Source of the DNA: a bacterium
Lineage (GTDB): Bacteria; Ratteibacteria; UBA8468; B48-G9; DTJG01
Assembly (NCBI GenBank): GCA_021800535.1
Contig: JAJYYV010000002.1
Span: 25,620-89,619 of the forward strand
Direction of reading: 5' to 3'
DNA length: 64,000 nt
The translations under genes and the position numbers were made by a program. This document shows, piece by piece, positions 25,908-50,911 of this stretch. The stretch's first letter is position 1, and each line of letters starts with the position of its first letter. The notes under the pieces were generated by a model. It had not been told where the DNA came from. It saw only the letters and a program-made list of their open reading frames with translations, and ran no database searches.

Positions 25908-27803
25908 ATGTGTGCAATATGCGGAATAATTAAAAAAGATGGCAGAATAGAAGACTGGATTTTAAAAAAAATGACAGAAATTATGTCTTATAGAGGCCCT
26001 GATGATGAAGGTTTTTATATCAAAGAAAATGCGGGTTTTGGACATAAAAGATTAAGCATTATTGACCTTAAAACAGGAAGACAGCCTTTTACCAATGAAG
26101 ATAATTCAATACATCTTATATGCAATGGAGAAATATATAACTTTCAGGAGGCAAGAGAACAATTAATAAAAAAAGGCCATAGGTTTGCCACAGGGTCAGA
26201 TAATGAAGTAATAATTCATCTCTATGAAGAAAAAGGAGTTGACTGCCTAAAAGATTTAAGAGGGATGTTTGCTTTTGCTATATGGGATGAAAAAGAAAAA
26301 ACTCTCTTTTTAGCAAGAGACAGACTTGGTAAAAAACCTCTGGTTTACTCTTTATTTAATAATTCTATTATATTTGCTTCGGAAATCAAGGCAATTCTTC
26401 AACATCCTGAAATCAAAAAAGATATTAATCCGGAAAGTATTGATATCTTTTTAAGTTATCAGGCTATACCCTCTCCTTTTACAATATTCAAAAATATAAA
26501 AAAGATTCCGTCTGCCTCATATCTTATATGGAAAAACGGAAATATTACAATTGAAAAATATTGGGATATAAATTTCAACAAAAAGATTAAATTAAAAAAT
26601 ACCATAGAATATGAGGAATTATTATGGGAAAAACTAACAGAAGCAACTAAACTAAGGATGATTTCAGATGTTCCTTTAGGAGCTTTTTTAAGTGGGGGGG
26701 TAGACTCTTCAACTATTGTTGGGATAATGAGTCAGGCTTCGTCTTCTGTAAAAACTTTTTCAATAGGATTTAGTGAAAAGGATTATAGTGAACTAAACTA
26801 TGCAAGAACAGTGGCATCACATTTTGGAACAGAGCATCGGCAGTTTATTGTCACCCCTGATATTATAAAAATCCTTCCTAAACTTGTCTGGTATTATAAT
26901 GAACCATTTGGAGATTCTTCTATGGTTCCTACATACTACATGGCTCAACAAACAAAAAAATATGTGACTGTGGCATTAAATGGCGATGGCGGAGATGAAA
27001 ATTTTGCAGGGTACACAAGATATTGGCAGGCTATTTTTATGCAGAAATTTTTTGGTATGTATATAAAATACCCCAAACAGATTAAAAAAATACTATCTTC
27101 TTTATTGCAAAGCAATAATGTATTTTCCAAAAATAAAATCTCAAAAACTTTACAGTATTTTGAAGAAACAAAAAAATATTACAGAAACAATATTTATTCA
27201 AGATTACTTGTTTCATTCCCAGAATCTAAAAAAGACCAACTATATTCTGTTGATATGAAAGAAAATTTAAAGGATTTTTCTTCTGTAGGCTATTTGCAGG
27301 GAATATGGGAAAAAACTGATAATCTTGATTTTATTGAAAAAATGCTTTATACAGATTTTAATTTTTATATTCCTGAGGTATTGATGGTAAAAATGGATAT
27401 TGCAACAATGTCAAATGCTTTAGAAGCAAGGAGTCCCTTTTTAGACCACCTGTTTATTGAAACTATTGCGCAATTTCCTGCTGAATTGAAATTTAAGAGA
27501 TGGGCATCAAAGTATATTTTGAAACAAAAGCTAAAAAATTTTCTGCCGGAAGAGATTTTAAAAAGAAAAAAAATGGGATTTGGAATTCCTTTGGCTGAAT
27601 GGTTTAGAACCGAAATGAAACACTATATTACTGATAATTTATTAAATGAAAAATGTTTATCCAGGGGATATTTTATTCCTGATGAAATTAAACAAATTGT
27701 TAAAGAACATATTTCAGGACAAACAAATCATTCAGGCCGTTTATGGTTATTGTTAAATCTTGAGTTATGGCATAGAATATTTATAGATGGAGAGAATTTA
27801 TAA
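25908..27803 (+). CDS. asparagine synthase family glutamine amidotransferase (AsnB-like)
   Basis: 631 aa. N-terminal nucleophile context MCAICGI and the PP-loop SGGVDSS in the synthetase domain. Confidence 0.9.
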   Translation: MCAICGIIKKDGRIEDWILKKMTEIMSYRGPDDEGFYIKENAGFGHKRLSIIDLKTGRQPFTNEDNSIHLICNGEIYNFQEAREQLIKKGHRFATGSDNEVIIHLYEEKGVDCLKDLRGMFAFAIWDEKEKTLFLARDRLGKKPLVYSLFNNSIIFASEIKAILQHPEIKKDINPESIDIFLSYQAIPSPFTIFKNIKKIPSASYLIWKNGNITIEKYWDINFNKKIKLKNTIEYEELLWEKLTEATKLRMISDVPLGAFLSGGVDSSTIVGIMSQASSSVKTFSIGFSEKDYSELNYARTVASHFGTEHRQFIVTPDIIKILPKLVWYYNEPFGDSSMVPTYYMAQQTKKYVTVALNGDGGDENFAGYTRYWQAIFMQKFFGMYIKYPKQIKKILSSLLQSNNVFSKNKISKTLQYFEETKKYYRNNIYSRLLVSFPESKKDQLYSVDMKENLKDFSSVGYLQGIWEKTDNLDFIEKMLYTDFNFYIPEVLMVKMDIATMSNALEARSPFLDHLFIETIAQFPAELKFKRWASKYILKQKLKNFLPEEILKRKKMGFGIPLAEWFRTEMKHYITDNLLNEKCLSRGYFIPDEIKQIVKEHISGQTNHSGRLWLLLNLELWHRIFIDGENL

Positions 27804-29043
27804 TATGAATAATAAAAACAGGATAATTTATTTATTAGGTGTATTTTTTATTGCCTTGATTATAAGAATTATTTTTATCCATACACTTAATAATAAAATC
27901 AATGTATGGGGGGATTGGTGGAGCGGCCTGGGCTGGCAATTGGCAACAGGCAAAGGGTTTTGGGTGGCAAATCCATTTTTCCATAAAGGCCCTGTTTTTT
28001 ATGCATGGAGGGACCCCGGTTTTCCTTTCTTTTTATCAATAATATATAGAATATTTGGACATAATTATTTAGCAGCAAAAATAGGACTGGCAGTTTTAAG
28101 TTCTTTAAGTGCTGTTTTACTTTATTTTACTGGTAAAATCTTGGCAAATGAAAGGGTTGGAATTATTAGTTCATTAATTTATGTCTTTTATCCGGCAGCA
28201 ATATTCTGGACAGGTTTTCTTGCTCCGGAAACACTTATTATTCCTATATTACTTGCTTTCTCTTTATGTTTTCTTTCCGGAGAAAAATTTAAAAATAGTT
28301 ATATGTTTTTCTTTGCCGGAGTTTTTTTAGGCTTAGGAGTCTTAACTTTTTCTTTATTTTTGGTTATTTTACCTGTAATTTTTATTTATATTTTAATTAA
28401 AAATAAAAGATTATTCATAAAAGGATTTTTAATTCCACTGGTAAGCTGTTTTTTAGTTGTTTCCCCATGGATAATGAGAAATTATAAAATTTATAAAATA
28501 TTTCTTTTAACTTCAACAGAAGGAGGAATAGTTGCCTATATAGCAAATAATCATTTATCTATTTCTCAACCAACAGGATATTGGAATCCTCCTGTAGGAT
28601 ATTTTCAAAAGCTTAAAGGATATTCAGAAATTAAAATAGACAGATACCTTTATTTTAAAACTCTTTCGTTTATTAAAAAACATCCTAAAATATATCTTTC
28701 TCTTGTCGGAGAAAGAATTATAAGATTCTGGAGATTTTATCCACATACATTTTCAGGACCAGGAAAAAGTAATTATTATAAAAAATATGTTCTGGCAAGT
28801 TTATTTACTATTGGACTGCTTTTACTTGTTTCTTTCTGGGGAATAATACTATCTTTTATTAAAAACAGATGGAAAGATTTTTTATTGTTATATCTTTTAA
28901 TATTTGCATGGTCAGCACCATTGATTTTATTTTTTAAAGTGGTAATCAGATATAGAGAACCAATTATGCCCTATATGATAATTTTTGCTTCACTGGTTAT
29001 TAATCAACTATTAGATAGAAAGAAAAAATATGTGGAAAAATAA
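27787..29043 (+). CDS. GT-C fold membrane glycosyltransferase (ArnT/PMT_2-like), variant first-loop motif
   Basis: 418 aa polytopic protein with about 10 hydrophobic segments. Its first loop reads VWGDWWSG rather than the Asp-Glu pair seen in the other four paralogs. The start may be the ATG at 27805, 1 nt after the asnB-like stop. Confidence 0.55.
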   Translation: MERIYNMNNKNRIIYLLGVFFIALIIRIIFIHTLNNKINVWGDWWSGLGWQLATGKGFWVANPFFHKGPVFYAWRDPGFPFFLSIIYRIFGHNYLAAKIGLAVLSSLSAVLLYFTGKILANERVGIISSLIYVFYPAAIFWTGFLAPETLIIPILLAFSLCFLSGEKFKNSYMFFFAGVFLGLGVLTFSLFLVILPVIFIYILIKNKRLFIKGFLIPLVSCFLVVSPWIMRNYKIYKIFLLTSTEGGIVAYIANNHLSISQPTGYWNPPVGYFQKLKGYSEIKIDRYLYFKTLSFIKKHPKIYLSLVGERIIRFWRFYPHTFSGPGKSNYYKKYVLASLFTIGLLLLVSFWGIILSFIKNRWKDFLLLYLLIFAWSAPLILFFKVVIRYREPIMPYMIIFASLVINQLLDRKKKYVEK

Positions 29044-29746
29044 AAAAATTTCTGTAATTTTCCCAACTTATAATGAAAAAGATTCAATAAAAAATTCTAT
29101 AGAAGATTTCTTTTCTTCTGGTTTTGTTGATGAAATAATTGTTATTAATAATAATGCGAAAGCAGGAACAGATGAAGAAGTAAAAAAAACCAAAGCGCGT
29201 ATTATATATGAAAAAAAACAGGGTTATGGATATGCCATATGGAAAGGATTAGAACAAACCTCAGGAGATTATATTATAATTTCAGAACCTGATGGCACAT
29301 TTTCAGGCAGAGATGTAATAAAACTTCTTGCATATAGTGATGATTTTGATTATGTTATTGGAACAAGGACAACTGAGGAATTAATATGGCAGGGGGCAAA
29401 TATGGATTTTTTTCTTAAATGGGGAAATTGGTTTACAGGAAAAATTATTGAATTTCTATACAATACAACATCTTTAACTGATGTAGGATGCACCATGAGA
29501 TTAATTAAAAGACCAGCATATGAAAAAATTAAAAGATTTTTTACTGTAGGTAAGCAACATTTTGGGCCGGAAATGACACTTCTTATTATAAAATCCGGTA
29601 TAAAATTTATTGAAATACCTGTAAATTATAAACCAAGAATTGGAACTTCATCTGTCACTGGAAGTAAAAAAAAAGCATTTTTTCTTGGACTTAAAATGAT
29701 ATTATTAATTTTTAGATATAGATTTAAAAAAATTAAACTTGACTGA
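29030..29746 (+). CDS. short GT2 glycosyltransferase (Dpm1/ArnC-like, candidate polyprenyl-phosphate sugar synthase)
   Basis: 238 aa. Motifs ISVIFPTYNEKDSI and ISEPDGTF (the DxD position). No full transmembrane segment. Confidence 0.75.
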   Translation: MWKNKKISVIFPTYNEKDSIKNSIEDFFSSGFVDEIIVINNNAKAGTDEEVKKTKARIIYEKKQGYGYAIWKGLEQTSGDYIIISEPDGTFSGRDVIKLLAYSDDFDYVIGTRTTEELIWQGANMDFFLKWGNWFTGKIIEFLYNTTSLTDVGCTMRLIKRPAYEKIKRFFTVGKQHFGPEMTLLIIKSGIKFIEIPVNYKPRIGTSSVTGSKKKAFFLGLKMILLIFRYRFKKIKLD

Positions 29747-30479
29747 ATGTAGGAAGAAAAAAATGATACTTGCATATCACAGAATAAATCCATGGTATGA
29801 AAATGATGCGCTTACAGTAAGACCTGAGGACTTTGAAAGGCAAATTAAATATCTGCAAAAAAAAGGATATAAATTTGTTTCTCTAAAGGAATATATTGCC
29901 ATAAAAACTGAAAAAGGACAGAGACAACATAAGATTTGTTGTTTTACTTTTGATGATGGATTTGCTGATAATCTATGGTTTGCTGCACCCATACTTGAAA
30001 AATACAAAATACCCGCAGTAATTTTTATTGCCGTAATGTTCATAGGAATAAAACAGGTACTTCCAAGATACAAAGATACTGAAAAAGACAGGTTTTTAAG
30101 ATGGGAAGAAGTAAAAAAAATGGCAGATTCAGGTATCCTGTTTGGTTCTCATGCTTTAACCCATCCGCGTCTTACACAAATTGATGATTCTCAAGCCTAT
30201 AATGAAATTATAAAATCAAAAGAAATTATAAAAGAAAAAATTGGTAAAGAGGCTGAATATTTTTGCTATCCATTTGGCGATATAAACCAAAATATTATAT
30301 CATTAGTGAAAAAAGCCGGTTATAAAGCTGCGGTATTAACTTATAAAAAAAATATACCTGAAAATTTATTTACTTTGCGTAGAACAGGTATTTATGGTAA
30401 AAATAACTTTTTTATTTATAGGATAAAAATATGGCGGACATACCTGAGAGAAAAAAAATCTGGATTATCTTTGGATTAA
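29739..30479 (+). CDS. NodB-homology polysaccharide deacetylase (ArnD-like position)
   Basis: 246 aa. Motif 1 is FTFDDGFADN and motif 2 is GSHALTHP. Overlaps both neighbouring genes. Confidence 0.85.
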   Translation: MTECRKKKMILAYHRINPWYENDALTVRPEDFERQIKYLQKKGYKFVSLKEYIAIKTEKGQRQHKICCFTFDDGFADNLWFAAPILEKYKIPAVIFIAVMFIGIKQVLPRYKDTEKDRFLRWEEVKKMADSGILFGSHALTHPRLTQIDDSQAYNEIIKSKEIIKEKIGKEAEYFCYPFGDINQNIISLVKKAGYKAAVLTYKKNIPENLFTLRRTGIYGKNNFFIYRIKIWRTYLREKKSGLSLD

Positions 30480-31645
30480 GCTTTCTTATACGATTGTTTT
30501 TTATATTTACTTTAAAAAATCATTTTTATTTTAGTGATGAACCCCAGAATGAAATAATGATTGTAAATTTTCTTCTGGGAAAAGGACTTATTATATCAAG
30601 CAATCTTAAAGCATTCAGGCCACCTCTTTATCCAATTTTTGCCAGCATGTTCTTTTACAATTCAGGACTTTGGGGGGTACGTTTTGCCCAATGTTTTGTT
30701 GGTGCTTTAACATCTGTTTTTATCTACTTAATTGGTAAAAAAATATTTTCCACAAGAATAGGATGGATTGCCGGCATTATAAGTTGTTTTTATCCTTTTT
30801 TAATTTTTTACACAGGATTTTTATTGACTGATGCCCTTGCTATATTACTGACTGTTATAAGTATATGGTGCCTAATTCATCTTGTTCCATTAGATAACCA
30901 GGATAAAAGCAAACAAAATCTTCTACTTTTTTCCATTCTTTCAGGAATAAGTTTAGGACTTGCCGGACTGGAAAGACCAACAATGGAAGCTTTTGTGCCT
31001 TTTGTTTTGTTTTTCATTCTTTCATTTAGGGAATCATGGATAAGAAAAATTAAAAAAATTGTTATTATATCTGTCTTTTTTACTTTAACGCTTTCCCCCT
31101 GGATAATACGAAATTATATTATATTCCATGAATTCATCCCAGGAACCACTATGGGAAGCCGGGTTTTCTGGGAAGGAAACAACCCTTATTCCATAGGCGG
31201 ACCAAGTTCTTATTTCCCCCAGCAGAAATTAAAGAATAAAACAGAAATACAGATGCAACATATCTATCTTGCAGATACAATACAGGTTATAAAAACAAAT
31301 CCAAAAAGATTTTTATGGCTTCTGTGGAATAAATTCAAGAGATTCTGGGCTGTTGTTCCAAATACAAAATTATATTCAAGTCCAAAGTATAAAATGGTTA
31401 GCGTTTTTTCCTTTGGCATACTACTGCCATTTTTTATTATTGGATTTTTCCTGACTTTAAGAAATAAAAAAGTGCAGTTTTTACATCTAATTATTATATT
31501 TTTCACACTTTTCCACATGGTTTTGCTTGCCTCTATAATATATAGGGCACCAATAGAACCATTTATTATTATTATTGCTGTAGTGGGATTTTTATGGTTA
31601 AAAGATAAAATTTATGAAATTAAGTATCATAATACCGGTGTATAA
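30431..31645 (+). CDS. GT-C fold membrane glycosyltransferase (ArnT/PMT_2-like)
   Basis: 404 aa, polytopic. Asp-Glu pair in the first loop (YFSDEPQNE, D36-E37). Lies between the deacetylase and a short GT2. Confidence 0.65.
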   Translation: MADIPERKKIWIIFGLSFLIRLFFIFTLKNHFYFSDEPQNEIMIVNFLLGKGLIISSNLKAFRPPLYPIFASMFFYNSGLWGVRFAQCFVGALTSVFIYLIGKKIFSTRIGWIAGIISCFYPFLIFYTGFLLTDALAILLTVISIWCLIHLVPLDNQDKSKQNLLLFSILSGISLGLAGLERPTMEAFVPFVLFFILSFRESWIRKIKKIVIISVFFTLTLSPWIIRNYIIFHEFIPGTTMGSRVFWEGNNPYSIGGPSSYFPQQKLKNKTEIQMQHIYLADTIQVIKTNPKRFLWLLWNKFKRFWAVVPNTKLYSSPKYKMVSVFSFGILLPFFIIGFFLTLRNKKVQFLHLIIIFFTLFHMVLLASIIYRAPIEPFIIIIAVVGFLWLKDKIYEIKYHNTGV

Positions 31646-32306
31646 TGAAAAAAATACAATATTAAAAATCATTGAAAAAGTAAACAATGTCCCTCTGGAA
31701 AAAGAGATTATTGTTGTTGATGATGGAAGCACTGATGGAACAAGAAATATTTTAAAAAATATTCAAAATACACCTACCTCATCACAAAATCTAAAAATAA
31801 TTTTTAAAGATAAAAATGAAGGAAAAGGTTCAGCAATAAGACAGGGGCTAAAGGAAGTAGCCGGAGATATTGTTACAATTCAGGACGCTGATTTGGAATA
31901 CGAACCAATGGATTTTTTATCTCTTATAAAACCTATAGAAAACTCCCAGACAAAAATTGTGTATGGTTCACGGCTTCTTGGAAGAGGAACAAAATCATCA
32001 TTGATGTTTTACTTGGGTGGACGTCTTCTTTCCTTTCTTGCCAATATTCTTTATGGACAAAAAATTACTGATGAACCAACCTGTTATAAGGTATTTAAAA
32101 CAGAACTGATAAAATCTATACCCTTAAAATGTAAAAGATTTGAATTCTGTCCGGAAATAACAGCTAAAGTAATGAAAAGAGGATATAAAATAGTAGAGCT
32201 GCCCATTCATTATAATCCACGAAGTATAAGTGAAGGAAAAAAAATAAGACTCAAAGATGGCATATCTGCAATCTGGACATTACTGAAATATAAATTTATT
32301 GATTAA
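31614..32306 (+). CDS. short GT2 glycosyltransferase (Dpm1-like)
   Basis: 230 aa. Motifs LSIIIPVYNEKNTI, VVDDGSTDGT and IQDADLEY. Confidence 0.8.
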   Translation: MKLSIIIPVYNEKNTILKIIEKVNNVPLEKEIIVVDDGSTDGTRNILKNIQNTPTSSQNLKIIFKDKNEGKGSAIRQGLKEVAGDIVTIQDADLEYEPMDFLSLIKPIENSQTKIVYGSRLLGRGTKSSLMFYLGGRLLSFLANILYGQKITDEPTCYKVFKTELIKSIPLKCKRFEFCPEITAKVMKRGYKIVELPIHYNPRSISEGKKIRLKDGISAIWTLLKYKFID

Positions 32307-32363: not shown

Positions 32364-33539
32364 ATGGAAAAATTAATCAAAAGAGATGCAGAAAAAACTT
32401 TAAAACATCTTACCTCAAAATTTCCTGTTATAGCAGTCGTTGGTCCCCGGCAATCAGGGAAAACCACTCTTGTAAAAAAAGTTTTTCCTAAAAGGAGATA
32501 TGTTTCTTTAGAAACTCCTGATATAAGAAGTTTTGCTTTAAATGACCCAAGAGCTTTTCTTAAAACTTATAGACAGGGTAGTATTATTGATGAAATTCAG
32601 CGGGTTCCTGATTTATTATCTTATATTCAAACTATAGTGGATGAAAAAGATGCCCCTGGAGGATATATTATTACAGGTTCTCAAAATTTTCTTCTTCATG
32701 AAAAAATTTCTCAAACCCTTGCAGGCCGGGTAGCATTATTAACACTTCTTCCCCTATCTTTATCTGAACTTCAGGAAACCAGATATAAAATGAAAAAATC
32801 CTGGGATTACATTATAAAAGGATTTTATCCCCGGGTATATAGCAAAAACATCGCTCCTGGCGAATGGTTTTCCAATTATATTCAAACATATATTGAACGG
32901 GATATCCGTTTACTAAAAAATATTACAGATATTGATACCTTTCAACGATTTATTAAATTATGTGCTGGCAGAACAGGTCAAATATTAAATTATTCTTCTC
33001 TGGCAAACGATTGTGGGATTAGTCATAATACTGCACGAGCATGGTTATCAATATTAGAAACCAGCTACATTATTTTTAAAGTTCAGCCATATTATAAAAA
33101 TTTCAATAAACGTATTATAAAAATGCCCAAAATATATTTTTATGATACAGGAATATTAAGTTTTTTACTTGGAATAAAAAATGCACACCAGATAGAACTT
33201 CATTATTTAAAAGGGGCTTTATTTGAAACATTTGTTATTGCGGAAATATATAAATTTTATTTAAACAAAGGATTCCACCCTGATTTATATTACTGGCATG
33301 ATAAAACAGGACATGAAATTGATTTGATTATTGAACAGGGAAATAAAACCTTTGCTATTGAAATAAAATCAGCTGAAACAATAGTTGGAGATTTTTTTAC
33401 AGGAATAAAATATTGGAATTCAATATCTCATAATTTTTCCAAAAATAATTTTATTATTTACAATGGAAACACTGAACAGGAAAGAGATAATATAAAAATT
33501 ATAAACTGGCAAAATTTATCAGAAATTCCTTTAAAATAA
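32364..33539 (+). CDS. AAA ATPase with HTH and C-terminal PD-(D/E)xK-like domain (COG1373 / DUF4143-type)
   Basis: 391 aa. Walker A GPRQSGKTT, Walker B IIDEIQ and an HTH-like segment GISHNTARAWLSILE. C-terminal HEIDLII...FAIEIKS fits a D...ExK nuclease motif. Confidence 0.75.
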   Translation: MEKLIKRDAEKTLKHLTSKFPVIAVVGPRQSGKTTLVKKVFPKRRYVSLETPDIRSFALNDPRAFLKTYRQGSIIDEIQRVPDLLSYIQTIVDEKDAPGGYIITGSQNFLLHEKISQTLAGRVALLTLLPLSLSELQETRYKMKKSWDYIIKGFYPRVYSKNIAPGEWFSNYIQTYIERDIRLLKNITDIDTFQRFIKLCAGRTGQILNYSSLANDCGISHNTARAWLSILETSYIIFKVQPYYKNFNKRIIKMPKIYFYDTGILSFLLGIKNAHQIELHYLKGALFETFVIAEIYKFYLNKGFHPDLYYWHDKTGHEIDLIIEQGNKTFAIEIKSAETIVGDFFTGIKYWNSISHNFSKNNFIIYNGNTEQERDNIKIINWQNLSEIPLK

Positions 33540-43024: not shown

Positions 43025-44142
43025 AAGCACTGGTAACAGGAGGAGCAGGTTTTATTGGCAGTCATGTTGTTGATAGATTAATCAAGGAAGGCTATCAGGT
43101 TAGAATATATGATAATCTTGATTTTCAGGTTCACCAGGGAAAAATACCCGAATATCTTAATAAGAAAGCTGAATTAATCTTTGGAGATATACTGGATAAA
43201 GAAAGATTTTATAATGCCATTAAAGATTGTGACATTATATTCCATTTTGCCTCTGCCGTGGGTGTTGGACAATCTCAATATCAAATTTCACATTATGTTG
43301 AAACAAATACATCAGGAACAGCCAATTTATTGGATATTCTCGTAAACAAAAACCATAAAATAAAAAAAATTATCCTTTCTTCTTCTATGAGTATGTATGG
43401 TGAAGGACTTTACGAATGTCAAAGATGCGGAAAAGTAAAACCTAAATTAAGAGAACTATCTTCTGTAAAAACAAAAAAAGATGAAAGTTTTTGGGAACCC
43501 AAATGTCCCCAATGTAATAGCCCTATAAAACCAACTCCAACATCAGAAGATATTCTAACTGAACCAAATTCAATCTATGCATATACAAAGCGGCATCAGG
43601 AAGAAATGCTTATGCTTATTGGAAAAACTTATGGCATAGCCACAACAGCATTAAGGTTTTTTAATGTGTATGGCTCCAGACAGTCTTTATCAAATCCTTA
43701 CACAGGTGTAGCAGCTATATTTTTAAGCAGAATAAAAAATAATCAACCGCCTGTTATATATGAAGACGGAAATCAAACCAGAGACTTTATCTGGATAGAA
43801 GACCTTGTACAAGCAATTATTATGGCAGCAAAAAGTCAAAAAGCCAGATATCAGGTTTTTAATCTTGGAACAGGCAACCCTATAAAAATAAAAGATATCG
43901 CAACAACTATTCAGAGTATTTTAAAGGTAAAAATTGAACCTGTTATAACCTATAAATTCAGAAAAGGGGATATCAGACATTGTATTGCAGACACTTCCAG
44001 AATAAAAAAATATTTAAATTTTCAGGCTAAAACTTCTTTATTAGAAGGGATGTCCAAACTAATAAAATGGTCTGAAAATGTTAAGGCAGAAGATAAATTT
44101 AGTCTTGCGGAAAAAGAATTAAAAGCAAAAGGGCTTATTTAA
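43021..44142 (+). CDS. extended-SDR sugar epimerase/dehydratase with an inserted Cys4 zinc-ribbon
   Basis: MKALVTGGAGFIGSH at the ATG overlapping the uxs stop; the ORF-track start at 42946 is rejected. Catalytic SSSMSMYG...YAYTKRHQE, with about 40 extra residues between Ser and Tyr carrying CQRC...CPQC. Confidence 0.8.
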   Translation: MKALVTGGAGFIGSHVVDRLIKEGYQVRIYDNLDFQVHQGKIPEYLNKKAELIFGDILDKERFYNAIKDCDIIFHFASAVGVGQSQYQISHYVETNTSGTANLLDILVNKNHKIKKIILSSSMSMYGEGLYECQRCGKVKPKLRELSSVKTKKDESFWEPKCPQCNSPIKPTPTSEDILTEPNSIYAYTKRHQEEMLMLIGKTYGIATTALRFFNVYGSRQSLSNPYTGVAAIFLSRIKNNQPPVIYEDGNQTRDFIWIEDLVQAIIMAAKSQKARYQVFNLGTGNPIKIKDIATTIQSILKVKIEPVITYKFRKGDIRHCIADTSRIKKYLNFQAKTSLLEGMSKLIKWSENVKAEDKFSLAEKELKAKGLI

Positions 44143-44148: not shown

Positions 44149-44853
44149 ATGAATTTAGACTTAAGTATTATTATCCCTGCTCGTAATGAAGAGGAAAATA
44201 TAGAAGAAACTATACACTCCATCGCAAAAGTTTTAAATAATATCCCAAATGAAATTATTGTGGTAAATGACCATTCAACTGATAAAACAGAAGAAACTGT
44301 TAAAAATATTTCAAAGAAAATTACATCTGTCAGAATAATAAGAAATGAAAAATCACCAGGCTTTGCGCATACACTTCTTTCTGGATTTAAATCTGCAAAA
44401 GGTGATTTTGTCCTGCCTGTAATGGCTGATGGATGTGATGAACCACAAACTATTCCTATAATGTTTGAAAAAGCACAGGAAGGTTATGATATGATATGCG
44501 GTTCCCGTTATATGAAAAAAGGAGGCAAATGTGGGGGACCTAAACTACAGGGATTGTTTTCTACATTTGTGGGGAAAAGTTTATATTATATTATAAGAAT
44601 ACCAACAAGGGATGTTTCCAATGCACTTAAGATGTACAGAAAAAGTGCTCTTGATAAAATAGAATTAAAAGAAAAAGGATTTTCAGTTTCTATGGAAGCG
44701 GCTCTAAAATTTTATTTTTCAGGATATAAAATATCTGAAGTTCCCACCATATGGTATGGAAGAAAAAAGGGAAAATCAAAGTTTAGATTAACAAAAACTT
44801 TTCCTTATATCAGACTTTATTTTTGGGCAATTATAAAATGGATATTTCAATAG
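44149..44853 (+). CDS. short GT2 glycosyltransferase (Dpm1-like)
   Basis: 234 aa. Motifs LSIIIPARNEEENI, VVNDHSTDKT and PVMADGCDEP. Confidence 0.8.
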   Translation: MNLDLSIIIPARNEEENIEETIHSIAKVLNNIPNEIIVVNDHSTDKTEETVKNISKKITSVRIIRNEKSPGFAHTLLSGFKSAKGDFVLPVMADGCDEPQTIPIMFEKAQEGYDMICGSRYMKKGGKCGGPKLQGLFSTFVGKSLYYIIRIPTRDVSNALKMYRKSALDKIELKEKGFSVSMEAALKFYFSGYKISEVPTIWYGRKKGKSKFRLTKTFPYIRLYFWAIIKWIFQ

Positions 44854-45542
44854 TAATTCCCGCTTATAATGAAGAAAACAGGATAGTAGCAACATTAAAT
44901 AAAATTTATAATTATTTAAAACAAAAACAGTTTGAGTTTGAAATAATTATTGTTGATGATGGAAGCAAAGATAAAACAAGGCAAATAGTGGAAAATTTTG
45001 AAAAAGAGAATAAAGAAATTAAATTATTACAGCATGAAAAAAATAAAGGCAAAGGTGCTTCTGTAAGAACCGGAGTCTTAATTGCAAAAGGGGATTATAT
45101 TCTTTTTTCTGATTCAGACCTGTCAACCCCAATTGAAGAATTAGATAAACTTTTATTCTGGGTTAAAGAGAAAGATTATGATATTGCAATTGCTTCAAGG
45201 GGATTGCCAGATTCACAAATACCAGTACCTCAACCATGGCATAGAAGACTAACAGGAAAAATGTTTCCTATTATGGTACGATTAATTGTGACAAATCAAT
45301 TCAGAGATACCCAGTGCGGATTTAAATTATTTAAAAAAGATGCATCAAAGGAAATATTCAAAGAACAGAAAATTACAGGTTTTGCTTTTGATGTGGAAGT
45401 TCTTTATAAGGCAATATTAAAAAGGTACAAAATAAAAGAAGTGCCTGTTATCTGGATAAATTCTGCTTCAAGCAAGGTGGCTATACTAAGAGACCCTTTA
45501 AAAATGCTAAAAGACTTATTTATTATTAAATTCTTAAAATGA
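44838..45542 (+). CDS. short GT2 glycosyltransferase (dolichyl/polyprenyl-phosphate glucosyltransferase-like)
   Basis: 234 aa from the ATG at 44838 (the track starts at a TTG at 44823). Motifs ISIVIPAYNEENRI, IVDDGSKDKT, FSDSDLSTP and FRDTQCGFKLF. Confidence 0.8.
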   Translation: MDISIVIPAYNEENRIVATLNKIYNYLKQKQFEFEIIIVDDGSKDKTRQIVENFEKENKEIKLLQHEKNKGKGASVRTGVLIAKGDYILFSDSDLSTPIEELDKLLFWVKEKDYDIAIASRGLPDSQIPVPQPWHRRLTGKMFPIMVRLIVTNQFRDTQCGFKLFKKDASKEIFKEQKITGFAFDVEVLYKAILKRYKIKEVPVIWINSASSKVAILRDPLKMLKDLFIIKFLK

Positions 45543-46066
45543 ATAATAATGAGATAAAAAAACTCAATTTGGGTTGCGGTCAGGACATCAAAAAAGGATA
45601 TATTAATATTGATTTTCTTAAATATCGGGGAGTTGATATAATACATAATTTAAATGAATATCCCTGGCCTTTTATAGATAATACTTTTGATGAAATTTAT
45701 GCAAGTCATATTTTAGAACATGTTGATGATATAAAAAGAGCAATGGAAGAGATAAAAAGAATTTGTAAAAAAAATGCACAAATTATAATAAGAGTCCCAC
45801 ATTTTAGTTGTGGTGTAAGTTATAGAGATCCGACCCACAAACGACTTTTTAGTTATTTCACATTTGATTATTTTGAAAAAGGCGAATATGGATTACCAAA
45901 ATTAAAAATTATAAAAAAATATTTGAACTTTACAAGATTTTTATTTATTTTTCTGAATAAAGTTTTTAATCCTGTTATTAATCTTGCACCAGCAATTTAT
46001 GAAAGATTTTTCTGCTGGATGCTGCCCTGTTCAGAAGTTTTATTTGAATTAAAAATTGAAAAATGA
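45539..46066 (+). CDS. class I SAM-dependent methyltransferase
   Basis: 175 aa. Motif I is LNLGCGQD, followed by FDEIYASHILEHV. ATGA overlaps on both sides. Confidence 0.75.
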   Translation: MNNNEIKKLNLGCGQDIKKGYINIDFLKYRGVDIIHNLNEYPWPFIDNTFDEIYASHILEHVDDIKRAMEEIKRICKKNAQIIIRVPHFSCGVSYRDPTHKRLFSYFTFDYFEKGEYGLPKLKIIKKYLNFTRFLFIFLNKVFNPVINLAPAIYERFFCWMLPCSEVLFELKIEK

Positions 46067-46971
46067 ATAAGATAAAATTTTCCATCATTGTTCCTATTGC
46101 ACCAGAAAGAAAGGCTGAAATTTTAAAAAGTCTTAATGAATTAGACTATAATAAAGACGAATATGAAATTATAGTGGAAAAAGGGACCAATGCCTCTGAA
46201 AACAGGAATAAAGGTATAAAAAAAGCACAGGGGGAAATAATTGCTTTTATAGATGATGATGCACTTTTAGATAAAAACTGGCTTAAAATAGCAGAAAAAT
46301 TTTTTATGGATTACCCTGATATAGATATTGTTGGTGGACCTCAATTAACCCCGGAAAATGACAGTATATTTGGAAAATGCACAGGATATGCATTAAGTTC
46401 TTTTTTGGGCGGAGCAATTATCAGGGATAGATATAAAAAATCAAAAATAAATCTTGCTGCAGATGAAAGAGATTTAACATCAGCAAACATGTTTTGTAAA
46501 AAAAAGATTTTTGAAAATACCCTGTTTAATCCTGAATTCTGGCCGGGAGAAGACCCGACTTTTTTTAATGAATGTATTGAAACCGGATTAAAATTGGTAT
46601 ATTCTCCGGATATTATTATTTATCATAAAAGAAGAGGAACGCTAAACAGACTTGCAAAGCAAATATTTAATTATGGATATGTACGGCCTAAAATTAAAAA
46701 AATAAAAAAAACAGAAAAAGCATCTATTCTTTTTGCTATTCCTTCTATTTTCCTATTATATATTATTCTTTTCCCAATGCTATATAATATAAACAAATTT
46801 TTAATAATTCCTTTGTATATTTATTTAATATTGGTTTTATTTCTTTCTATAGTAGGAGCAATAAAAGAAAAAAATATTTTTGGGATTTTGTTGATACCAA
46901 TAATATTTATAACAATCCATTTAAGTTATGGATTAGGATATTTATTAAGCTATTCTACAAAAAAACAATGA
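46063..46971 (+). CDS. GT2 glycosyltransferase with C-terminal transmembrane helices (GtrB/ArnC-like architecture)
   Basis: 302 aa. Motifs FSIIVPIAPERK and AFIDDDALL. Two to three hydrophobic helices in the last ~90 aa. Confidence 0.75.
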   Translation: MNKIKFSIIVPIAPERKAEILKSLNELDYNKDEYEIIVEKGTNASENRNKGIKKAQGEIIAFIDDDALLDKNWLKIAEKFFMDYPDIDIVGGPQLTPENDSIFGKCTGYALSSFLGGAIIRDRYKKSKINLAADERDLTSANMFCKKKIFENTLFNPEFWPGEDPTFFNECIETGLKLVYSPDIIIYHKRRGTLNRLAKQIFNYGYVRPKIKKIKKTEKASILFAIPSIFLLYIILFPMLYNINKFLIIPLYIYLILVLFLSIVGAIKEKNIFGILLIPIIFITIHLSYGLGYLLSYSTKKQ

Positions 46972-47516
46972 AAACAAGAAATAGTTTCTTAAGAAAAATC
47001 GAACTATACTTACGTCTTTTTTTGCTAAATCAATGGGATAAAGAAAAAAATATACTTTTAAAAATTGTAAATGGAAAAGGAGCAGATATTGGTTGTGGTT
47101 CACGTAAAATAAGTCATAATTGTATTGGTGTGGATTTAACAGGCAAAGGTGAAAAAGGGCAATTTGGATACGAAAAAAATAAAATATCAGTATCAGATTA
47201 TAAATCTTCAGGGGATAATCTTTTTATGTTTAAAGATAATGAACTTGATTTTATTGTAGCAAAACATAATTTAAAACATTATGCCGAATCTGAACAAACA
47301 TTAAAAGAATGGAAAAGAGTTTTAAAATTTGGGGGGAAAATAGGAGTCATAGTTCCTGATGATAGATATTTAAATTCGTTAAAGTTAGATGAAACTCATA
47401 AAATTGCTTTTGATTCTGAAAAACTGGAAAAATTATTCCAAAAAGCCGGTTTTAAAATTATTGATAAAGGAATAGCCGTTAAACATTGGAGCATTTATCT
47501 TATTGCAGAAAAATAA
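46968..47516 (+). CDS. class I SAM-dependent methyltransferase
   Basis: 182 aa. Motif I is GADIGCGSRK, followed by LDFIVAKHNLKHY and LKFGGKIGVIVP. Confidence 0.7.
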   Translation: MKTRNSFLRKIELYLRLFLLNQWDKEKNILLKIVNGKGADIGCGSRKISHNCIGVDLTGKGEKGQFGYEKNKISVSDYKSSGDNLFMFKDNELDFIVAKHNLKHYAESEQTLKEWKRVLKFGGKIGVIVPDDRYLNSLKLDETHKIAFDSEKLEKLFQKAGFKIIDKGIAVKHWSIYLIAEK

Positions 47517-47517
47517 A

Positions 47518-48492
47518 ATGGGAAACCCATTGATTAGTTTTGTTGTCCCAATGAAGGAAAAGGATTTCCGGGTTATAAATCTTCTTGAATCTATAAGAAA
47601 ACAAAATTATCCACAAAATAATATTCAGATAATAATAATTGATGGGGGAAGTAACCCTACTGTTTTGGAAGCCTGTAAAAAATATAATGTGGAAATATAT
47701 TTTAATAAATACGGATTTGCAGAAGGAAAAGGAATGGGAAAGGACCAGGGAATCTGGAAATCAAAAGGCAAGTATGTTGTGATATCAGAATCCGATATAA
47801 AACTTGTTGGTGAAAATTGGATAAATGAAATGATAGAACCTCTGGAAAAAGATGAAAAATTTTTTGCAAGTGTACCCGGTTTATATGTAGATAAAAAGGA
47901 TAATATTGTGAACAGATATTTAAGTTATGTGGGAGTTGACCCTTTTGCGATTTTCCGTTCATTGGAAGGTCAGTTAGCATTAGGAAAAGTTGAATTAAAT
48001 GATTGCGGTAATTATTATTGTGTCAATCTTAATAAAAAAGAGCCTTATTGCATGGGGAGTAATGGATTTATGTTTAGAAAAGAATTGATAGAAAAAGTGG
48101 GAGACTATGCCCAGGATGTAGAATTTATTGCCAGGCTTGTAAAGAATGGATTTATAAAATTCGCCATTCCCCAAAATGCAAAAGTTTTTCATGCAAACAT
48201 AAAAAACTTTTATGAATTTCTGAAAAAAAGAATAAAATGGACAAAAACCTACACAAAATTTTATGCAGATGAAAAAAAGGATTTTGTATGGATAATCAAT
48301 AAATACAAATTTTTCATCTATGTAATGAAAAATATTTTTATATTACCCAATATTCCAATTTCAATAAAAAATTTTTTCAAATACAGGGATTCAGCATGGT
48401 TTTTACATCCTTTTTTGCTTTTTCTAACAACATCTATTAATATTTTTTATAGTATGCAATCCAAAAAAATGTTACACAATCTTTTAAAATGA
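47518..48492 (+). CDS. GT2 glycosyltransferase with C-terminal hydrophobic region
   Basis: 324 aa from the ATG at 47518, 1 nt after the previous stop (the track starts at a TTG at 47503). Motifs ISFVVPMKEKD and IIIDGGSNPT. Confidence 0.7.
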   Translation: MGNPLISFVVPMKEKDFRVINLLESIRKQNYPQNNIQIIIIDGGSNPTVLEACKKYNVEIYFNKYGFAEGKGMGKDQGIWKSKGKYVVISESDIKLVGENWINEMIEPLEKDEKFFASVPGLYVDKKDNIVNRYLSYVGVDPFAIFRSLEGQLALGKVELNDCGNYYCVNLNKKEPYCMGSNGFMFRKELIEKVGDYAQDVEFIARLVKNGFIKFAIPQNAKVFHANIKNFYEFLKKRIKWTKTYTKFYADEKKDFVWIINKYKFFIYVMKNIFILPNIPISIKNFFKYRDSAWFLHPFLLFLTTSINIFYSMQSKKMLHNLLK

Positions 48493-48575: not shown

Positions 48576-48797
48576 ATGCAGACGATAGAAAAGGTTCGAA
48601 AGCAGTTTATTCTTGACCCTGAAAAGATTAATATAATTAAACGGCTTACTCATGCTGCAACTGAAACAGAAGCAATAAACAAGGTATTAGATATGGTTAT
48701 TGCAAACGAAAAAATTGAAAAAGCTCTTATGAGTGTCAAAAATAAAGGAAAGATAAAAGATATCTATGGAAGATTACCCGTTCAAAATTATAAGTGA
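48576..48797 (+). CDS. VapB-type antitoxin (Rv0623/DUF2191-like pattern)
   Basis: 73 aa. The segment FILDPEKINIIKRLTHAATETEAINKVLDMVI resembles this antitoxin class. Directly upstream of, and overlapping, a PIN gene. Confidence 0.55.
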   Translation: MQTIEKVRKQFILDPEKINIIKRLTHAATETEAINKVLDMVIANEKIEKALMSVKNKGKIKDIYGRLPVQNYK

Positions 48798-49194
48798 CAC
48801 TTCTGTATACATTCCTTTTATTAATAATGGAATCTTTCATCCTGTATTTTCTAAATCTATCAGACCTGTATTTTATATGAGCATAGTAGTTCTTGTGGAA
48901 CTATACGCAGGATGTCATGATATTAATTCTATAAAACTTGTTAACAAGCTATACCATACTTTTCTTAATGTTAGAAGACTTATTGTTCCTGACAATGAAG
49001 ATTGGAAAAAAACAGGAACTATTATGGCTAAACTTGGACAAAAATATGGGTTTGAATCAAAATATATTGCAAAAATCCAGAATGATATTTTAATTGCATG
49101 TTCAGCACGCGGAATTGGGGCATTTATTGTTACTCATAATAAAAAGGATTTTCTTCGTATAAAAGAGTTTATAGATTTTCAAATTTATGAGTAA
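48766..49194 (+). CDS. PIN-domain toxin (VapC-like)
   Basis: 142 aa. N-terminal acidic-residue context IISDTSVYIPFI. Later NDILIACSARGIGAFIVTHNKKDF is typical of a PIN C-terminus. 32-nt overlap with the antitoxin gene. Confidence 0.7.
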   Translation: MEDYPFKIISDTSVYIPFINNGIFHPVFSKSIRPVFYMSIVVLVELYAGCHDINSIKLVNKLYHTFLNVRRLIVPDNEDWKKTGTIMAKLGQKYGFESKYIAKIQNDILIACSARGIGAFIVTHNKKDFLRIKEFIDFQIYE

Positions 49195-49255: not shown

Positions 49256-50911
49256 ATGAATAATAAAATTATTATTTCTATTTTAATTCTTTTCTCAGGG
49301 GTGTTATTTTTTACAGGGATTAACTGGGGGCTTCCTTCTGCAAAAATTAATTCTCTTTATTTTCAGAATACAAAAGACATCAAAAAAACTCTGAATTTGA
49401 TTAAAAAATATAGGCAAAAAAAAGAAAAACCTCCTCGTTATTTATATAATTCTATTCGCAGCTATCATCCAGATGAATATTTTGTTATAAAATCACTTTC
49501 ATCAATAAATCCCCGTAAATTAAATTTCAATACACACCAATTTGCAATAGGAGGGGCTTATATTTACCTGCTGGGTGTCATACTTTTAATTTTTTCAAAA
49601 CTAAAACTTATATATCTTACAAAAAATATCAGTTTTTATTTTTTTCATCCTTTTCAGATTGCAAAATTTTACATTGTTGGAAGAATATTAAGCGGACTGT
49701 ATGGAATAGGTATTATTCTTTTTACCTATCTTCTTGGAACAAATCTATGGAATAATAAAAATGCCGGATTTTATGCTGGAATTCTGACTGCATTATCTCC
49801 ACTTGTTTTACTTAATTCTCATTATATGTATGTTGATATTCCCGGATTGTTCTGGACAATGCTTGCGCTTTTCCTTGCTGTAAAATTTCTAAAAGGCAAA
49901 ACAAATAAATTTATGCCATTTCTTATAGGAGTTGCATGCGGAATTGCATCAGGGAATAAATTAACATTCGTTCTGTCTTTTCTTATTCCATTTTTTACCT
50001 TTGTTTTACTGGAAAAAAATCGGTTTATTTTAAGAGCTAAAAATGTGTTTTTTTCTTTTATTGGCTTTATACTTGCTTTTTTTATAACAAATCCTTATTT
50101 TTTAAACGCCTTTCATCAATTATTCTTTGGGAAAGGTAAAAATGCTGTTGCTTTAAGTTTTCAACCAAATTTTTATTTCTTATCTCTAAAAGATGGATTA
50201 GGATTATTCCTGTTAATTTTTTTACTCGCAGGAATTATTTTTGCATTTTTTAAAAAAGAGAAAGAAATTCTTGAATCTGATAAGATGCTTGTTTTATTAT
50301 GGATTGTAAGTTTTTTTGTTATAATGTCTTTTTTTGCGCTAAAATTTGCCCGATATATTCTTCCTATTATACCTTCTTTTATTGTTTTAGGCATAGGATT
50401 CTGGATGAATTATACAAACAGAAAATATTCAATTGTTAAAAAGATACTTCTTATTCTTGTAGTATTTATAACTTTTATTTATGGAATTTCATTTTTATCT
50501 CTTTTTATCAGAAATACAAGAACAAAAGCAGGTGAATGGATTTCTCAGAATTTACCCGGAGGAACAACAATTGGAGTTACAGAAGTGCCCTGGCAGTTTC
50601 AGGTGCCGCCTTTAAATGAAGAAAAATATAAAATAAAATCTACTGGTTATAATATCCATAAAGTAAAAAAACTATTGCCTAAATATTTTCTTATTTCTTC
50701 TTTCCAGGCTCCTATTCCTACATATCCTGTTAATCTTAGGGAAGCAAAAAAAAAATTCTGGAAACAGTTAAAAAAAACAAATATATATAAACCAGTTAAA
50801 ATGTGGCGGATTGAACCTTCATTTTTCGGTTTTACCTTCAAATATAAAACAATGCCGCAGGACTTAATTTATTTAAATCCCACTATTATTCTGTTAAAAA
50901 AAGGACATTAA
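49256..50911 (+). CDS. GT-C fold membrane glycosyltransferase (ArnT/PMT-like)
   Basis: 551 aa, polytopic. First-loop motif SYHPDEYFV (D73-E74). C-terminal soluble domain of about 120 aa. Confidence 0.6.
   Translation: MNNKIIISILILFSGVLFFTGINWGLPSAKINSLYFQNTKDIKKTLNLIKKYRQKKEKPPRYLYNSIRSYHPDEYFVIKSLSSINPRKLNFNTHQFAIGGAYIYLLGVILLIFSKLKLIYLTKNISFYFFHPFQIAKFYIVGRILSGLYGIGIILFTYLLGTNLWNNKNAGFYAGILTALSPLVLLNSHYMYVDIPGLFWTMLALFLAVKFLKGKTNKFMPFLIGVACGIASGNKLTFVLSFLIPFFTFVLLEKNRFILRAKNVFFSFIGFILAFFITNPYFLNAFHQLFFGKGKNAVALSFQPNFYFLSLKDGLGLFLLIFLLAGIIFAFFKKEKEILESDKMLVLLWIVSFFVIMSFFALKFARYILPIIPSFIVLGIGFWMNYTNRKYSIVKKILLILVVFITFIYGISFLSLFIRNTRTKAGEWISQNLPGGTTIGVTEVPWQFQVPPLNEEKYKIKSTGYNIHKVKKLLPKYFLISSFQAPIPTYPVNLREAKKKFWKQLKKTNIYKPVKMWRIEPSFFGFTFKYKTMPQDLIYLNPTIILLKKGH

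Follow-up and report, generated by a model that had tools for sequence, protein, structure and literature searches.

A lineage-conserved gene array in Ratteibacteria that may encode parallel modules for extracytoplasmic glycosylation of the cell envelope

In the three-component systems that glycosylate targets outside the bacterial membrane, a GT-A glycosyltransferase (GT) loads a sugar onto the C55 lipid phosphate, a flippase follows, and transfer outside the membrane falls to a GT-C enzyme (PMC8035078, PMC11127046). Named examples are GtrA/B/C, CsbB-GtcA-YfhO, the Csd pairs with CflA, GacI/J/K/L and the PPPRS-MATE-GT136 system of C. youngae. Such pairs can be multiplied within one organism. 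Lactococcus lactis has three GT-A/GT-C pairs (CsdAB, CsdCD and CsdEF) with one distant flippase, CflA, and Bacillus subtilis has three pairs as well (PMC8035078), while in the rhizobial Rgt system a single GT2 enzyme, RgtE, supplies several GT-Cs (PMC7663294). Here we analyse a 64,000-nucleotide stretch, hereafter the window, from a member of Ratteibacteria, a candidate phylum in the NCBI listing (assembly GCA_021800535.1, contig JAJYYV010000002.1, positions 25,620 to 89,619). In it, genes for five polytopic membrane proteins (GTC1 to GTC5) and five short GT2 proteins (GT2a to GT2e) lie in one co-directional array. On balance we consider it probable that this locus is a lineage-conserved, operon-like array of multi-component extracytoplasmic glycosylation modules that decorate an envelope acceptor, either lipopolysaccharide (LPS) or an exported glycan. 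In the literature we found no account of the locus or of envelope glycans in Ratteibacteria or Omnitrophota, and to our knowledge no envelope chemistry is known for these bacteria.

The window resembles the three-component systems in that a GT-A polyprenyl-phosphate loader stands beside a GT-C whose external loop carries an acidic motif, in that several pairs are present, and in that the flippase possibly lies elsewhere (PMC8035078, PMC11127046). It differs from them in gathering four to five modules in one co-directional array, kept throughout a candidate phylum, whereas the known cases comprise one to three dispersed pairs. It differs also in its GT2 proteins, which lack transmembrane (TM) helices, in its GT-Cs, which are of the PMT_2 rather than the YfhO/GtrC type, and in embedding a CE4 deacetylase and nucleotide-sugar genes with no flippase found. 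A sequence-only reading of the same DNA had described a one-to-one set of five pairs as far beyond the classical module; this was overstated, given the three pairs of L. lactis and B. subtilis (PMC8035078) and the several GT-Cs that RgtE serves (PMC7663294). The array represents a known route of envelope decoration in a large, lineage-conserved form and not a new mechanism, its parts and logic being known. What is new is its scale and conservation, the uniform lack of TM helices in synthases that have no evident partner or flippase, and the embedded CE4 and nucleotide-sugar genes. It does not overturn the current understanding of GT-C systems and would not surprise specialists in bacterial glycobiology. 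If our reading is right, an uncultured lineage devotes a conserved operon of about 25 kb to four to five parallel lipid-linked-sugar branches, and its envelope glycan would be unusually elaborate and built or finished in the periplasm. The locus would then also offer matched small parts (TM-less synthases of 230 aa, a GT-C of 404 aa and a CE4 editing step) for work on donor specificity, synthase-transferase pairing and glycoengineering, and it would sharpen the question of how polyprenyl-phosphate sugars are flipped where no GtrA, SMR or Wzx gene lies beside the pair.

All twelve open reading frames (ORFs) of the sequence-only reading are present where it had placed them; for the ORFs at 44823 and 47503, the program called TTG starts that lie 15 nt before the ATGs that it had chosen. 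The five polytopic proteins are encoded on the forward strand, as are all genes described below unless stated otherwise. They are GTC1 (27787-29043, 418 aa), GTC2 (30431-31645, a compact 404 aa), GTC3 (36344-37945, 533 aa), GTC4 (38231-39727, 498 aa, with no adjoining GT2) and GTC5 (49256-50911, 551 aa, with a C-terminal alpha/beta domain). GTC1 to GTC4 match the Pfam family PMT_2 (54.7, 56.3, 24.0 and 36.7 bits, respectively, the value for GTC3 lying below the 26.1-bit cut-off), and GTC5 alone matches PF02366 (PMT), at 31.7 bits and over part of the model (positions 81-201 of 245). Searches of the PDB by phmmer with the single sequences of three of these proteins returned no matches; we therefore built family alignments and turned to profile and structure searches. 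The AlphaFold2 model of GTC2 (pLDDT 95) has GT-C enzymes as all of its best 33 Foldseek matches in the PDB, among them PglB, AglB, STT3, ArnT, Pmt4, Pmt1/2, ALG3/9, PimE, Emb and Aft. Similarly, the model of GTC5 (pLDDT 91) has significant matches to GT-C enzymes only (ALG12, ALG9, STT3, ArnT, DPY19, PglB, AftD and Pmt4), and the GTC5 family profile finds Pmt1 (1e-3) and ArnT (0.01) in the PDB. Profile-profile comparison ties the remaining proteins to these two. GTC1 is a full-length paralogue of GTC2 (29% identity; its hhalign alignment with the GTC2 family spans 376 columns at E 2e-49) and, alone of the five, matches E. coli ArnT by BLAST (E 7e-8 over 154 aa). The GTC3 family profile aligns with the GTC2 family (98.4% probability, E 6e-15, 302 columns, with MDE placed on DE) and with the GTC5 family (95.7%), while GTC4 aligns with the GTC2 family over the N-terminal core (E 1e-10), again with DE on DE. 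The GTC2 and GTC5 families are themselves linked at 97.9%. Because Pfam, the predicted structures of GTC2 and GTC5 and the profile-profile links of the rest agree, all five polytopic proteins are GT-C enzymes, as had been proposed from the sequence, and none is of the Wzy or WaaL type. An identity as O-antigen ligase or polymerase was rejected: the membrane proteins gave no Wzy_C matches, and the fold matches were all to GT-C enzymes.

The loop motifs that the sequence-only reading had picked out (FSDEPQ, TMDEPK, WADEFW, HPDEYF and GDWW) are indeed found in the translations right after the first TM helix, 5-40 residues past it in each GT-C, and are kept in orthologues. D36-E37 of GTC2 is invariant in 22 of 22 close homologues and H71-P72-D73-E74 of GTC5 in 51 of 51, and MDE in GTC3, (C/A)DE in GTC4 (15 orthologues) and GDWWDE in GTC1 are conserved in the respective orthologues. 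Judged from these alignments, the acidic motifs of loop 1 are under selection, and the GT-C fold together with the basic N-termini would place the motif loop outside the membrane. A DE motif in loop 1 is a hallmark of protein O-mannosyltransferases (PMTs), and four of the five window GT-Cs carry one. Some or all of the GT-Cs might be PMT-, TMTC- or PgfM-like enzymes that pass polyprenyl-phosphate sugars to Ser/Thr of secreted or membrane proteins. The Pfam families matched, PMT_2 and PMT, are in keeping with this, as are the matches of the GTC2 family profile to the O-mannosyltransferase TMEM260 (1e-4) and of the GTC5 profile to Pmt1. In addition, the top NCBIfam model for GT2d and GT2e is PgfS, which feeds streptococcal GT-C protein glycosyltransferases (PMC12041528). 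However, PMT_2 also includes ArnT-type lipid A transferases, and a Pfam scan found a MIR or TPR domain in none of the five GT-Cs, TPR-bearing PMT_2 proteins occurring only among distant homologues. Moreover, the genomic context is one of LPS and polysaccharide genes (GT4, GT9, Wzm/Wzt and Ugd/UXS), with no Ser/Thr-rich target encoded nearby. Weighing both sides, we consider protein O-glycosylation an improbable function of the locus.

The short GT2 proteins are GT2a (29030-29746, 238 aa), GT2b (31614-32306, 230 aa), GT2c (35622-36362, 246 aa), GT2d (44149-44853, 234 aa) and GT2e (44823-45542, 239 aa, with ATG 44838 as an alternative start). They look as soluble as first described, since each contains PF00535 and none a hydrophobic segment, and they share 22-31% identity with one another over their full length. 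In the PDB, the best relatives of GT2a and GT2b, both of the Dpm1/ArnC class, are ArnC (1e-6, residues 5-200) and DPMS (3e-6) for the former and DPMS (1e-19) and ArnC (1e-15), each over about 200 residues, for the latter. GT2d is DPMS-like (Pyrococcus DPMS, 2e-30 over residues 3-231; GtrB, 4e-15), GT2e is closest to DPMS (3e-18) and GtrB (1e-17), and GT2c, the weakest of the Dpm1-like set, to 3bcv, an uncharacterised Bacteroides GT2 (3e-6), and DPMS (9e-6). Alignments to DPMS, ArnC or GtrB thus cover about 200-230 residues and rank top for four of the five, with DPMS a close second for GT2c, and matches to chondroitin and heparosan synthases, GpgS, SpsA and PglI cover only some 100 N-terminal residues. 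The same division is seen with NCBIfam. The best models (AglJ, haloarchaeal Dol-P-hexose transferase, PpgS, ArnC and PgfS) align end to end, and models of ordinary GT2s align with only the N-terminal 100 residues or so. AglJ scores 85 bits with GT2a over the full length, 112 bits with GT2b (ArnC 72 bits) and 66 bits with GT2c (PpgS 63 bits, residues 6-207 on model positions 3-201 of 226), and GT2d and GT2e score highest with PgfS.

GT2 family profiles were built from orthologues in related loci and run against a small E. coli panel. ArnC outscored WcaA and WcaE with each of the five profiles and PgaC with four of them (over about 200 residues), coming first for GT2a, GT2b, GT2d and GT2e. The GT2b profile, for example, scores 82 bits with ArnC over the full length and meets PgaC at the N-terminus only, and the GT2e profile scores 85 bits with ArnC and 76 bits with GtrB. 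Lengths of 230-246 aa without TM helices are comparable to the models of PpgS (226) and haloarchaeal Dol-P-hexose transferase (213), and human DPM1 and the catalytic domain of Ppm1 are likewise TM-less polyprenyl-phosphate sugar synthases. PpgS acts with the small membrane protein Rv3632, and in some mycobacteria the catalytic domain of Ppm1 is separate from its membrane domain (PMC3485146). Each short GT2 ends in a basic and hydrophobic tail, whose hydrophobic moment was not distinctive when the tails were compared as possible amphipathic membrane anchors. As the sequence-only reading had supposed, the affinities of the short GT2s are to polyprenyl-phosphate sugar synthases and not to ordinary or processive GT2s, clearly for four and more weakly for GT2c (35622), and they most likely belong to that class.

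We then turned to related genomes. The window's DNA matches metagenome contigs only (identical genes lie, for example, on ENA ERZ27237285 contig k141_352832), and homologues of its GT-Cs, at 45-57% identity, come almost exclusively from metagenome-assembled genomes (MAGs) that carry the label Candidatus Omnitrophota/Omnitrophica, Candidatus Ratteibacteria or TA06. A locus search of species-representative genomes, made with a 22-sequence alignment because one of 65 sequences was too diverse, returned 42 loci, 40 of them from the Ratteibacteria/Omnitrophota-type lineage, and their ORFs were annotated with the window's proteins. The common order is (GT4 GT4 AsnB) [GT2 GT-C] GTC1 [GT-C] GT2a DAC GTC2 GT2b MT [GT2c GTC3] [GTC4] Epi Ugd UXS EpiZn GT2d GT2e GTC5, where square brackets mark optional modules, DAC is the CE4 deacetylase, MT a methyltransferase, and Epi and EpiZn are epimerases. 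Precomputed gene calls of a 567-kb Ratteibacteria contig agree with this order. Since the arrangement recurs in about 40 related loci, the clustering is not due to chance. The array of five GT-Cs and five short GT2s is lineage-conserved and not peculiar to the window, as three more fully covered loci (L022, L028 and L038) have the same complement, and GT-C numbers per locus run from three to five or more.

Gene neighbourhoods in the 42 loci couple the two enzyme types closely: 87% of the 111 GT-C genes lie no more than two genes from a short GT2, and 90% of the 94 short GT2 genes lie equally near a GT-C. Across related genomes the two are neighbours, and they appear and disappear as units. The window, L005 and L007 have both GT2c and GTC3, which are absent together elsewhere, while GTC1 and GT2a occur together in 17 loci and are both lacking where AsnB abuts DAC, GT2a always being accompanied by GTC1. 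The order DAC-GTC2-GT2b is invariant in all relatives that cover it, GT2d-GT2e-GTC5 is a constant block, and the order Epi-Ugd-UXS-EpiZn is conserved.

Such constancy also bears on another view of the locus, in which the GT-Cs act in sequence, drawing on several polyprenyl-phosphate sugars to build most of a lineage-specific glycan outside the membrane. Models for this are the mycobacterial PimE/Mpt/Emb/Aft enzymes, which build lipomannan and lipoarabinomannan and the arabinan, and ALG3/9/12, which extend the N-glycan precursor. A gene order kept over about 40 species-level MAGs at only 45-55% protein identity fits a core structure better than a variable decoration, and three to five or more GT-Cs per locus and dedicated nucleotide-sugar genes within the array would fit sequential assembly too. 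The best structural matches of GTC5, ALG12 and ALG9, are extenders of a lipid-linked oligosaccharide, although Foldseek rank among GT-Cs at 10-15% identity tells little about the acceptor. On the other hand, four GT4 and one GT9 cytoplasmic transferases and an ABC exporter in the array suggest a backbone built in the conventional way. We therefore regard sequential assembly of this kind as unlikely.

For the preferred reading, that of modules decorating an envelope acceptor, the GT-C fold and family, the GT2 class, the gene order and the co-inheritance of modules are the observed ground. From them we infer the lipid-linked intermediates, the sugars, the flipping, the acceptor and the assignment of each GT2 to a GT-C, and the same holds for the lipid-linked monosaccharides and extracytoplasmic transfer at the core of the sequence-only reading. 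At the cytoplasmic face, each TM-less GT2 would move one sugar from a nucleotide sugar onto polyprenyl phosphate. One of these lipid-linked sugars, probably an N-acetylhexosamine (HexNAc), would be de-N-acetylated by the adjoining CE4 polysaccharide deacetylase (DAC; 29739-30479, 246 aa, Polysacc_deac_1 95 bits). The gene of this enzyme sits between those of GT2a and GTC2 and overlaps them at the start and stop codons. The enzyme has no signal peptide and retains its metal-binding and catalytic motifs (TFDDG and H-x-x-x-H), and it is predicted to act on polyprenyl-phosphate HexNAc on the cytoplasmic side. Other sugars would probably be drawn from a pool of UDP-glucuronic acid (UDP-GlcA), UDP-pentose and their epimers. 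This pool would be supplied by four genes assigned by Pfam and NCBIfam, namely a short-chain dehydrogenase/reductase (SDR) of epimerase/dehydratase type (39727-40749), UDP-glucose 6-dehydrogenase (Ugd; 40746-42083), a decarboxylase like UXS and the C-terminal part of ArnA (42080-43024; 30% identity to the E. coli ArnA decarboxylase domain over 337 aa) and the SDR epimerase EpiZn with a CxxC...CxxC insert (42946-44142). The block of Ugd, UXS and the two epimerases adjoins GT2d, GT2e and GTC5.

The lipid-linked monosaccharides would then be flipped by a transporter encoded outside the window, and the five GT-Cs, working at the outer face of the inner membrane, would add single sugars to the acceptor. 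Genes for KdsA, KdsD, a KdsC-like HAD phosphatase and an LptA-like protein (5792-8645, minus strand; Pfam-type annotation) are encoded in the window, because of which the host is, by annotation, very likely a diderm bearing LPS. An ABC-2 permease with six hydrophobic segments (12705-13526; Pfam ABC2_membrane 70 bits) and an ATPase (13532-14290; ABC_tran 79 bits) form a Wzm/Wzt-type ABC exporter, a candidate carrier of the acceptor glycan. The modules are accompanied by these Kdo and Lpt genes, by GT9 and GT4 genes and, in the same array, by the exporter, because of which the acceptor would most likely be LPS (lipid A-core) or a glycan exported by the Wzm/Wzt pair.

Comparison with described modules may suggest what the branches do. 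M. tuberculosis PpgS/Rv3779 (PMC3485146) and the undecaprenyl-phosphate (Und-P)-GalN/FlmK system of Francisella (PMC4402001) both pass a hexosamine by way of a GT-C to an envelope glycan or lipid A. DAC, GTC2 and GT2b, with GT2a and GTC1 where present, would by analogy follow the logic of such amino-sugar modules and of ArnC/ArnD/ArnT. A polyprenyl-phosphate HexNAc GT2, deacetylation and GT-C transfer of the hexosamine would be shared with PpgS/Rv3632/Rv3779, Francisella Und-P-GalN/FlmK and the modification of Bordetella lipid A with GlcN. The short GT2s are also of PpgS length, and GT2c aligns end to end on the PpgS model, though at 63 bits against a cut-off of 370. Unlike the Francisella and Bordetella deacetylases, which are YdjC-type, that of the window belongs to CE4 and resembles the N-terminal domain of PgaB (PgaB/NodB type). 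DAC was rejected as an ArnD orthologue, its family profile giving no match to E. coli ArnD. With the Arn pathway the window shares Ugd, a UDP-GlcA decarboxylase-type SDR, an Und-P GT2, a deacylase of a lipid-linked sugar and a GT-C of the PMT_2 clan. Unlike that pathway, it has no ArnE/F and, among its Pfam-scanned ORFs, no ArnB-type/DegT aminotransferase and no formyltransferase domain; its deacetylase is not ArnD-like and its ArnC scores fall far below the cut-off. On sequence comparison, the window proteins are not orthologues of the Arn enzymes.

The block of Ugd, UXS, epimerase, GT2d, GT2e and GTC5 would instead follow the logic of a uronic-acid or pentose module, as with RgtE and RgtD/RgtF. 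In the rhizobial and Aquifex Rgt systems, several ArnT-like GT-Cs (RgtA-D/F) put a polyprenyl-phosphate-derived uronic acid on lipid A/core (PMC7663294). The likeness to Rgt is one of logic only, in that Ugd and the SDR epimerases of the window could supply UDP-galacturonic acid. GT2 and GT-C numbers are about equal in the window, whereas one Rgt synthase serves many GT-Cs, and a lipid A phosphatase is not seen in the window. Finally, TM-less catalytic GT2s working with GT-Cs recall the mycobacterial Ppm1 and eukaryotic DPM1 systems, and the folds of GTC5 and GTC2 resemble ALG, PMT and PimE. In those systems, however, one donor serves many GT-Cs, the genes are scattered, and membrane partners (Ppm1 D1/Ppm2 and DPM2/3) anchor the synthase; none was identified in the window.

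A number of findings weigh against decoration modules as we propose them. In the window's GTC1 (27916-27927, residues 44-47), VWGDWWDELGW of 18 orthologues has become VWGDWWSGLGW, so that GD is retained but DE is replaced by SG. As several nucleotide changes are needed, this is not a simple sequencing error, and the enzyme may be altered or inactive. Neither E. coli ArnT nor the GtrC-type YfdI was detected by hmmsearch with the GT-C family profiles, so that likeness to any one characterised enzyme is remote. The escape of YfdI also sets the window apart from the Gtr cluster, as do the lack of GtrA and the lack in its GT2s of the two C-terminal TM helices of GtrB. None of the five short GT2s reaches any NCBIfam equivalog cut-off (at most 72 bits against 529 for ArnC, and 63 against 370 for PpgS), and their membership is for this reason at class level only. 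Moreover, two of them stand only weakly apart from other GT2s: GT2e in the NCBIfam comparison, and GT2c, whose family profile scores 25.5 bits with PgaC (N-terminus only) and 20.6 bits with ArnC. The exporter pair, for its part, is absent within 10 kb of the core in relatives, so that its link to the modules is confined to the window. The strict one-to-one pairing claimed in the sequence-only reading did not survive: GTC4 never has its own GT2, GT2d and GT2e stand in tandem before one GT-C, and relatives carry extra GT-Cs without a GT2. Because GTC4 lacks a neighbouring GT2 and GT2d and GT2e have one GT-C between them, a simple pairwise model is incomplete. Some GTC5-like copies in relatives stand alone, and some relatives have further PMT_2 genes. 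Lastly, no flippase of known type was found in the 64-kb window or, in most relatives, within 10 kb of the core.

The missed cut-offs bear on a further alternative, in which the short GT2s are ordinary cytoplasmic Leloir transferases working on a glycan linked to undecaprenyl diphosphate, the GT-Cs use some other donor, and adjacency reflects a shared pathway. Consistent with it are the absence from the short GT2s of the C-terminal TM helices that GtrB, ArnC and archaeal DPMS possess, the uncharacterised Bacteroides GT2 as the solved structure nearest to GT2c, and single-sequence BLAST, in which GT2d scores slightly higher with PgaC than with ArnC. However, GT-C enzymes require lipid-phosphate-linked donors, and the array encodes no other synthase for them. 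The alignments to DPMS, ArnC, AglJ and PpgS include the acceptor half of the protein, whereas those to ordinary GT2s end near residue 100, and the modules are gained and lost as units of GT2 and GT-C. Polyprenyl-phosphate sugar synthases without TM helices do exist, such as PpgS (PMC3485146). We consider it very improbable that the short GT2s are such Leloir enzymes.

Regarding the flipping step, no Pfam match to GtrA, SMR/ArnEF, Wzx or MATE was found among the scanned window ORFs of at least 120 aa, a set that leaves out six ORFs lying across longer annotated ones. The only free small multi-TM ORF in the window lies between MreC and PBP2, the position of MreD, and the gaps of the array contain antitoxin-like ORFs only. 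Within 10 kb of the core in relatives there is likewise no flippase, apart from a Polysacc_synt/MOP protein upstream in L003, and no GacJ- or Rv3632-like small partner of the short GT2s is evident. The absence does not exclude the mechanism, because known systems tolerate a distant shared flippase (PMC8035078). The sequence-only reading had reported no flippase, initiating transferase, Wzx/Wzy or WaaL; this is true for those families, but the Wzm/Wzt-type pair at 12705-14290 had been overlooked, as had the CE4 deacetylase, the Ugd/UXS/epimerase block and the KdsA, KdsD and LptA-like genes. In two relatives (L007:4772-5771 and L023:8314-9329), a SatD-family gene and a three-TM protein of 110-114 aa stand between GT2a and DAC. 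We rejected the latter as a GtrA-type flippase, since it gave no GtrA match and sits beside the SatD-family gene.

One could also imagine a self-contained periplasmic factory typical of Ratteibacteria/Omnitrophota, with every TM-less synthase bound to the GT-C that it feeds. Within such a complex the lipid-linked sugar would change hands, and perhaps also cross the membrane, with no separate flippase, and the GT-Cs would jointly build a lineage-defining envelope glycan rather than decorate one. The lack of a flippase in about 40 loci, the tight translational coupling and one GT-C::GT2 fusion (P0043) are compatible with this arrangement but do not prove it, and we consider it improbable. P0043 (L005:637-2511) is a GTC2::GT2b fusion protein, and P0131 is a fusion of GTC5 with QueA, an adjacency that is conserved. 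As Rosetta-stone evidence P0043 was downgraded, because in the window the two genes overlap out of frame, so that a single frameshift would fuse them, and because P0131 joins unrelated neighbours. Fusions of this kind may stem from frameshifts or from errors of gene calling.

The co-directional array as a whole spans 12233 to 50911 and is thus larger than the 27787-50911 first described. It begins with a MarR-like gene, the ABC-2 permease and ATPase, an APS kinase, a 485-aa protein and a B12-radical-SAM enzyme, and continues with GT4, GT9, three further GT4 genes and an AsnB-like amidotransferase before the GT-C/GT2 core. Start and stop codons overlap along the array, which is broken up by two AAA_14/DUF4143 genes and by toxin-antitoxin-like genes. 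Directly after the exporter pair, the APS kinase, the 485-aa protein (whose sole match is a faint one to Sulfotransfer_3 at the N-terminus) and the B12-binding radical-SAM enzyme occupy 14304-17774, and this block may sulfate or methylate the glycan that the pair exports, for instance to mark the end of the chain. Among the upstream GT4 genes lie a toxin-antitoxin-like pair (21788-22431, an AbrB-like ORF and PIN_3) and, between the GT4 genes at 22444-23592 and 24781-25899, a nucleotidyltransferase gene on the minus strand. The AsnB-like glutamine amidotransferase (25908-27803; Pfam) has as its nearest NCBIfam model the XrtA/PEP-CTERM amidotransferase, at 593 bits and under the model's cut-off.

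Within the core, tandem AAA_14/DUF4143 ATPase genes (32364-34856) stand between GT2b and the SAM methyltransferase MT1 (34828-35625; Methyltransf_23/11). They are absent from this position in the about 25 syntenic relatives that cover it. MT1 keeps its place behind GT2b in relatives. An orphan MazE/AbrB-like ORF lies at 38016-38234, and an antitoxin-like ORF with PIN at 48576-49194. EpiZn carries a zinc-ribbon-like CxxC...CxxC insert of about 45 residues that splits its Rossmann domain, a form of 371-379 aa that is kept in relatives, and its true start is probably the ATG near 43021. The segment 45539-48492, made up by Pfam of a methyltransferase, a long GT2 (46063-46971), another methyltransferase and a second long GT2 (47503-48492), is specific to the window, GT2e and GTC5 being adjacent in relatives. 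The long GT2s have MftF, HpsE and XrtG-associated proteins as their best NCBIfam models, are not Dpm1-like and share with the short GT2s only the N-terminal nucleotide-binding part. C-terminal TM helices had been noted in both; that at 46063 has a clear TM block, whereas that at 47503 falls below the hydropathy threshold.

Some relatives have further glycan genes beside the array. A divergent Wzy_C (O-antigen-ligase-type) protein with TPR repeats flanks it in L027 (88-1878, minus strand), and a divergent undecaprenyl-diphosphatase (BacA/UppP) flanks it in L022 (2440-3210, minus strand). By size and position alone, ORFs in L030 and L031 suggest a Wzy_C and UppP pair, as an ORF of UppP size does in L027. 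The window has a G+C content of about 29%, and near its end an 831-aa protein with a weak match to GH106 (alpha-L-rhamnosidase) is encoded on the minus strand (61381-63876), adjoining the mreBCD-PBP2-rodA block.

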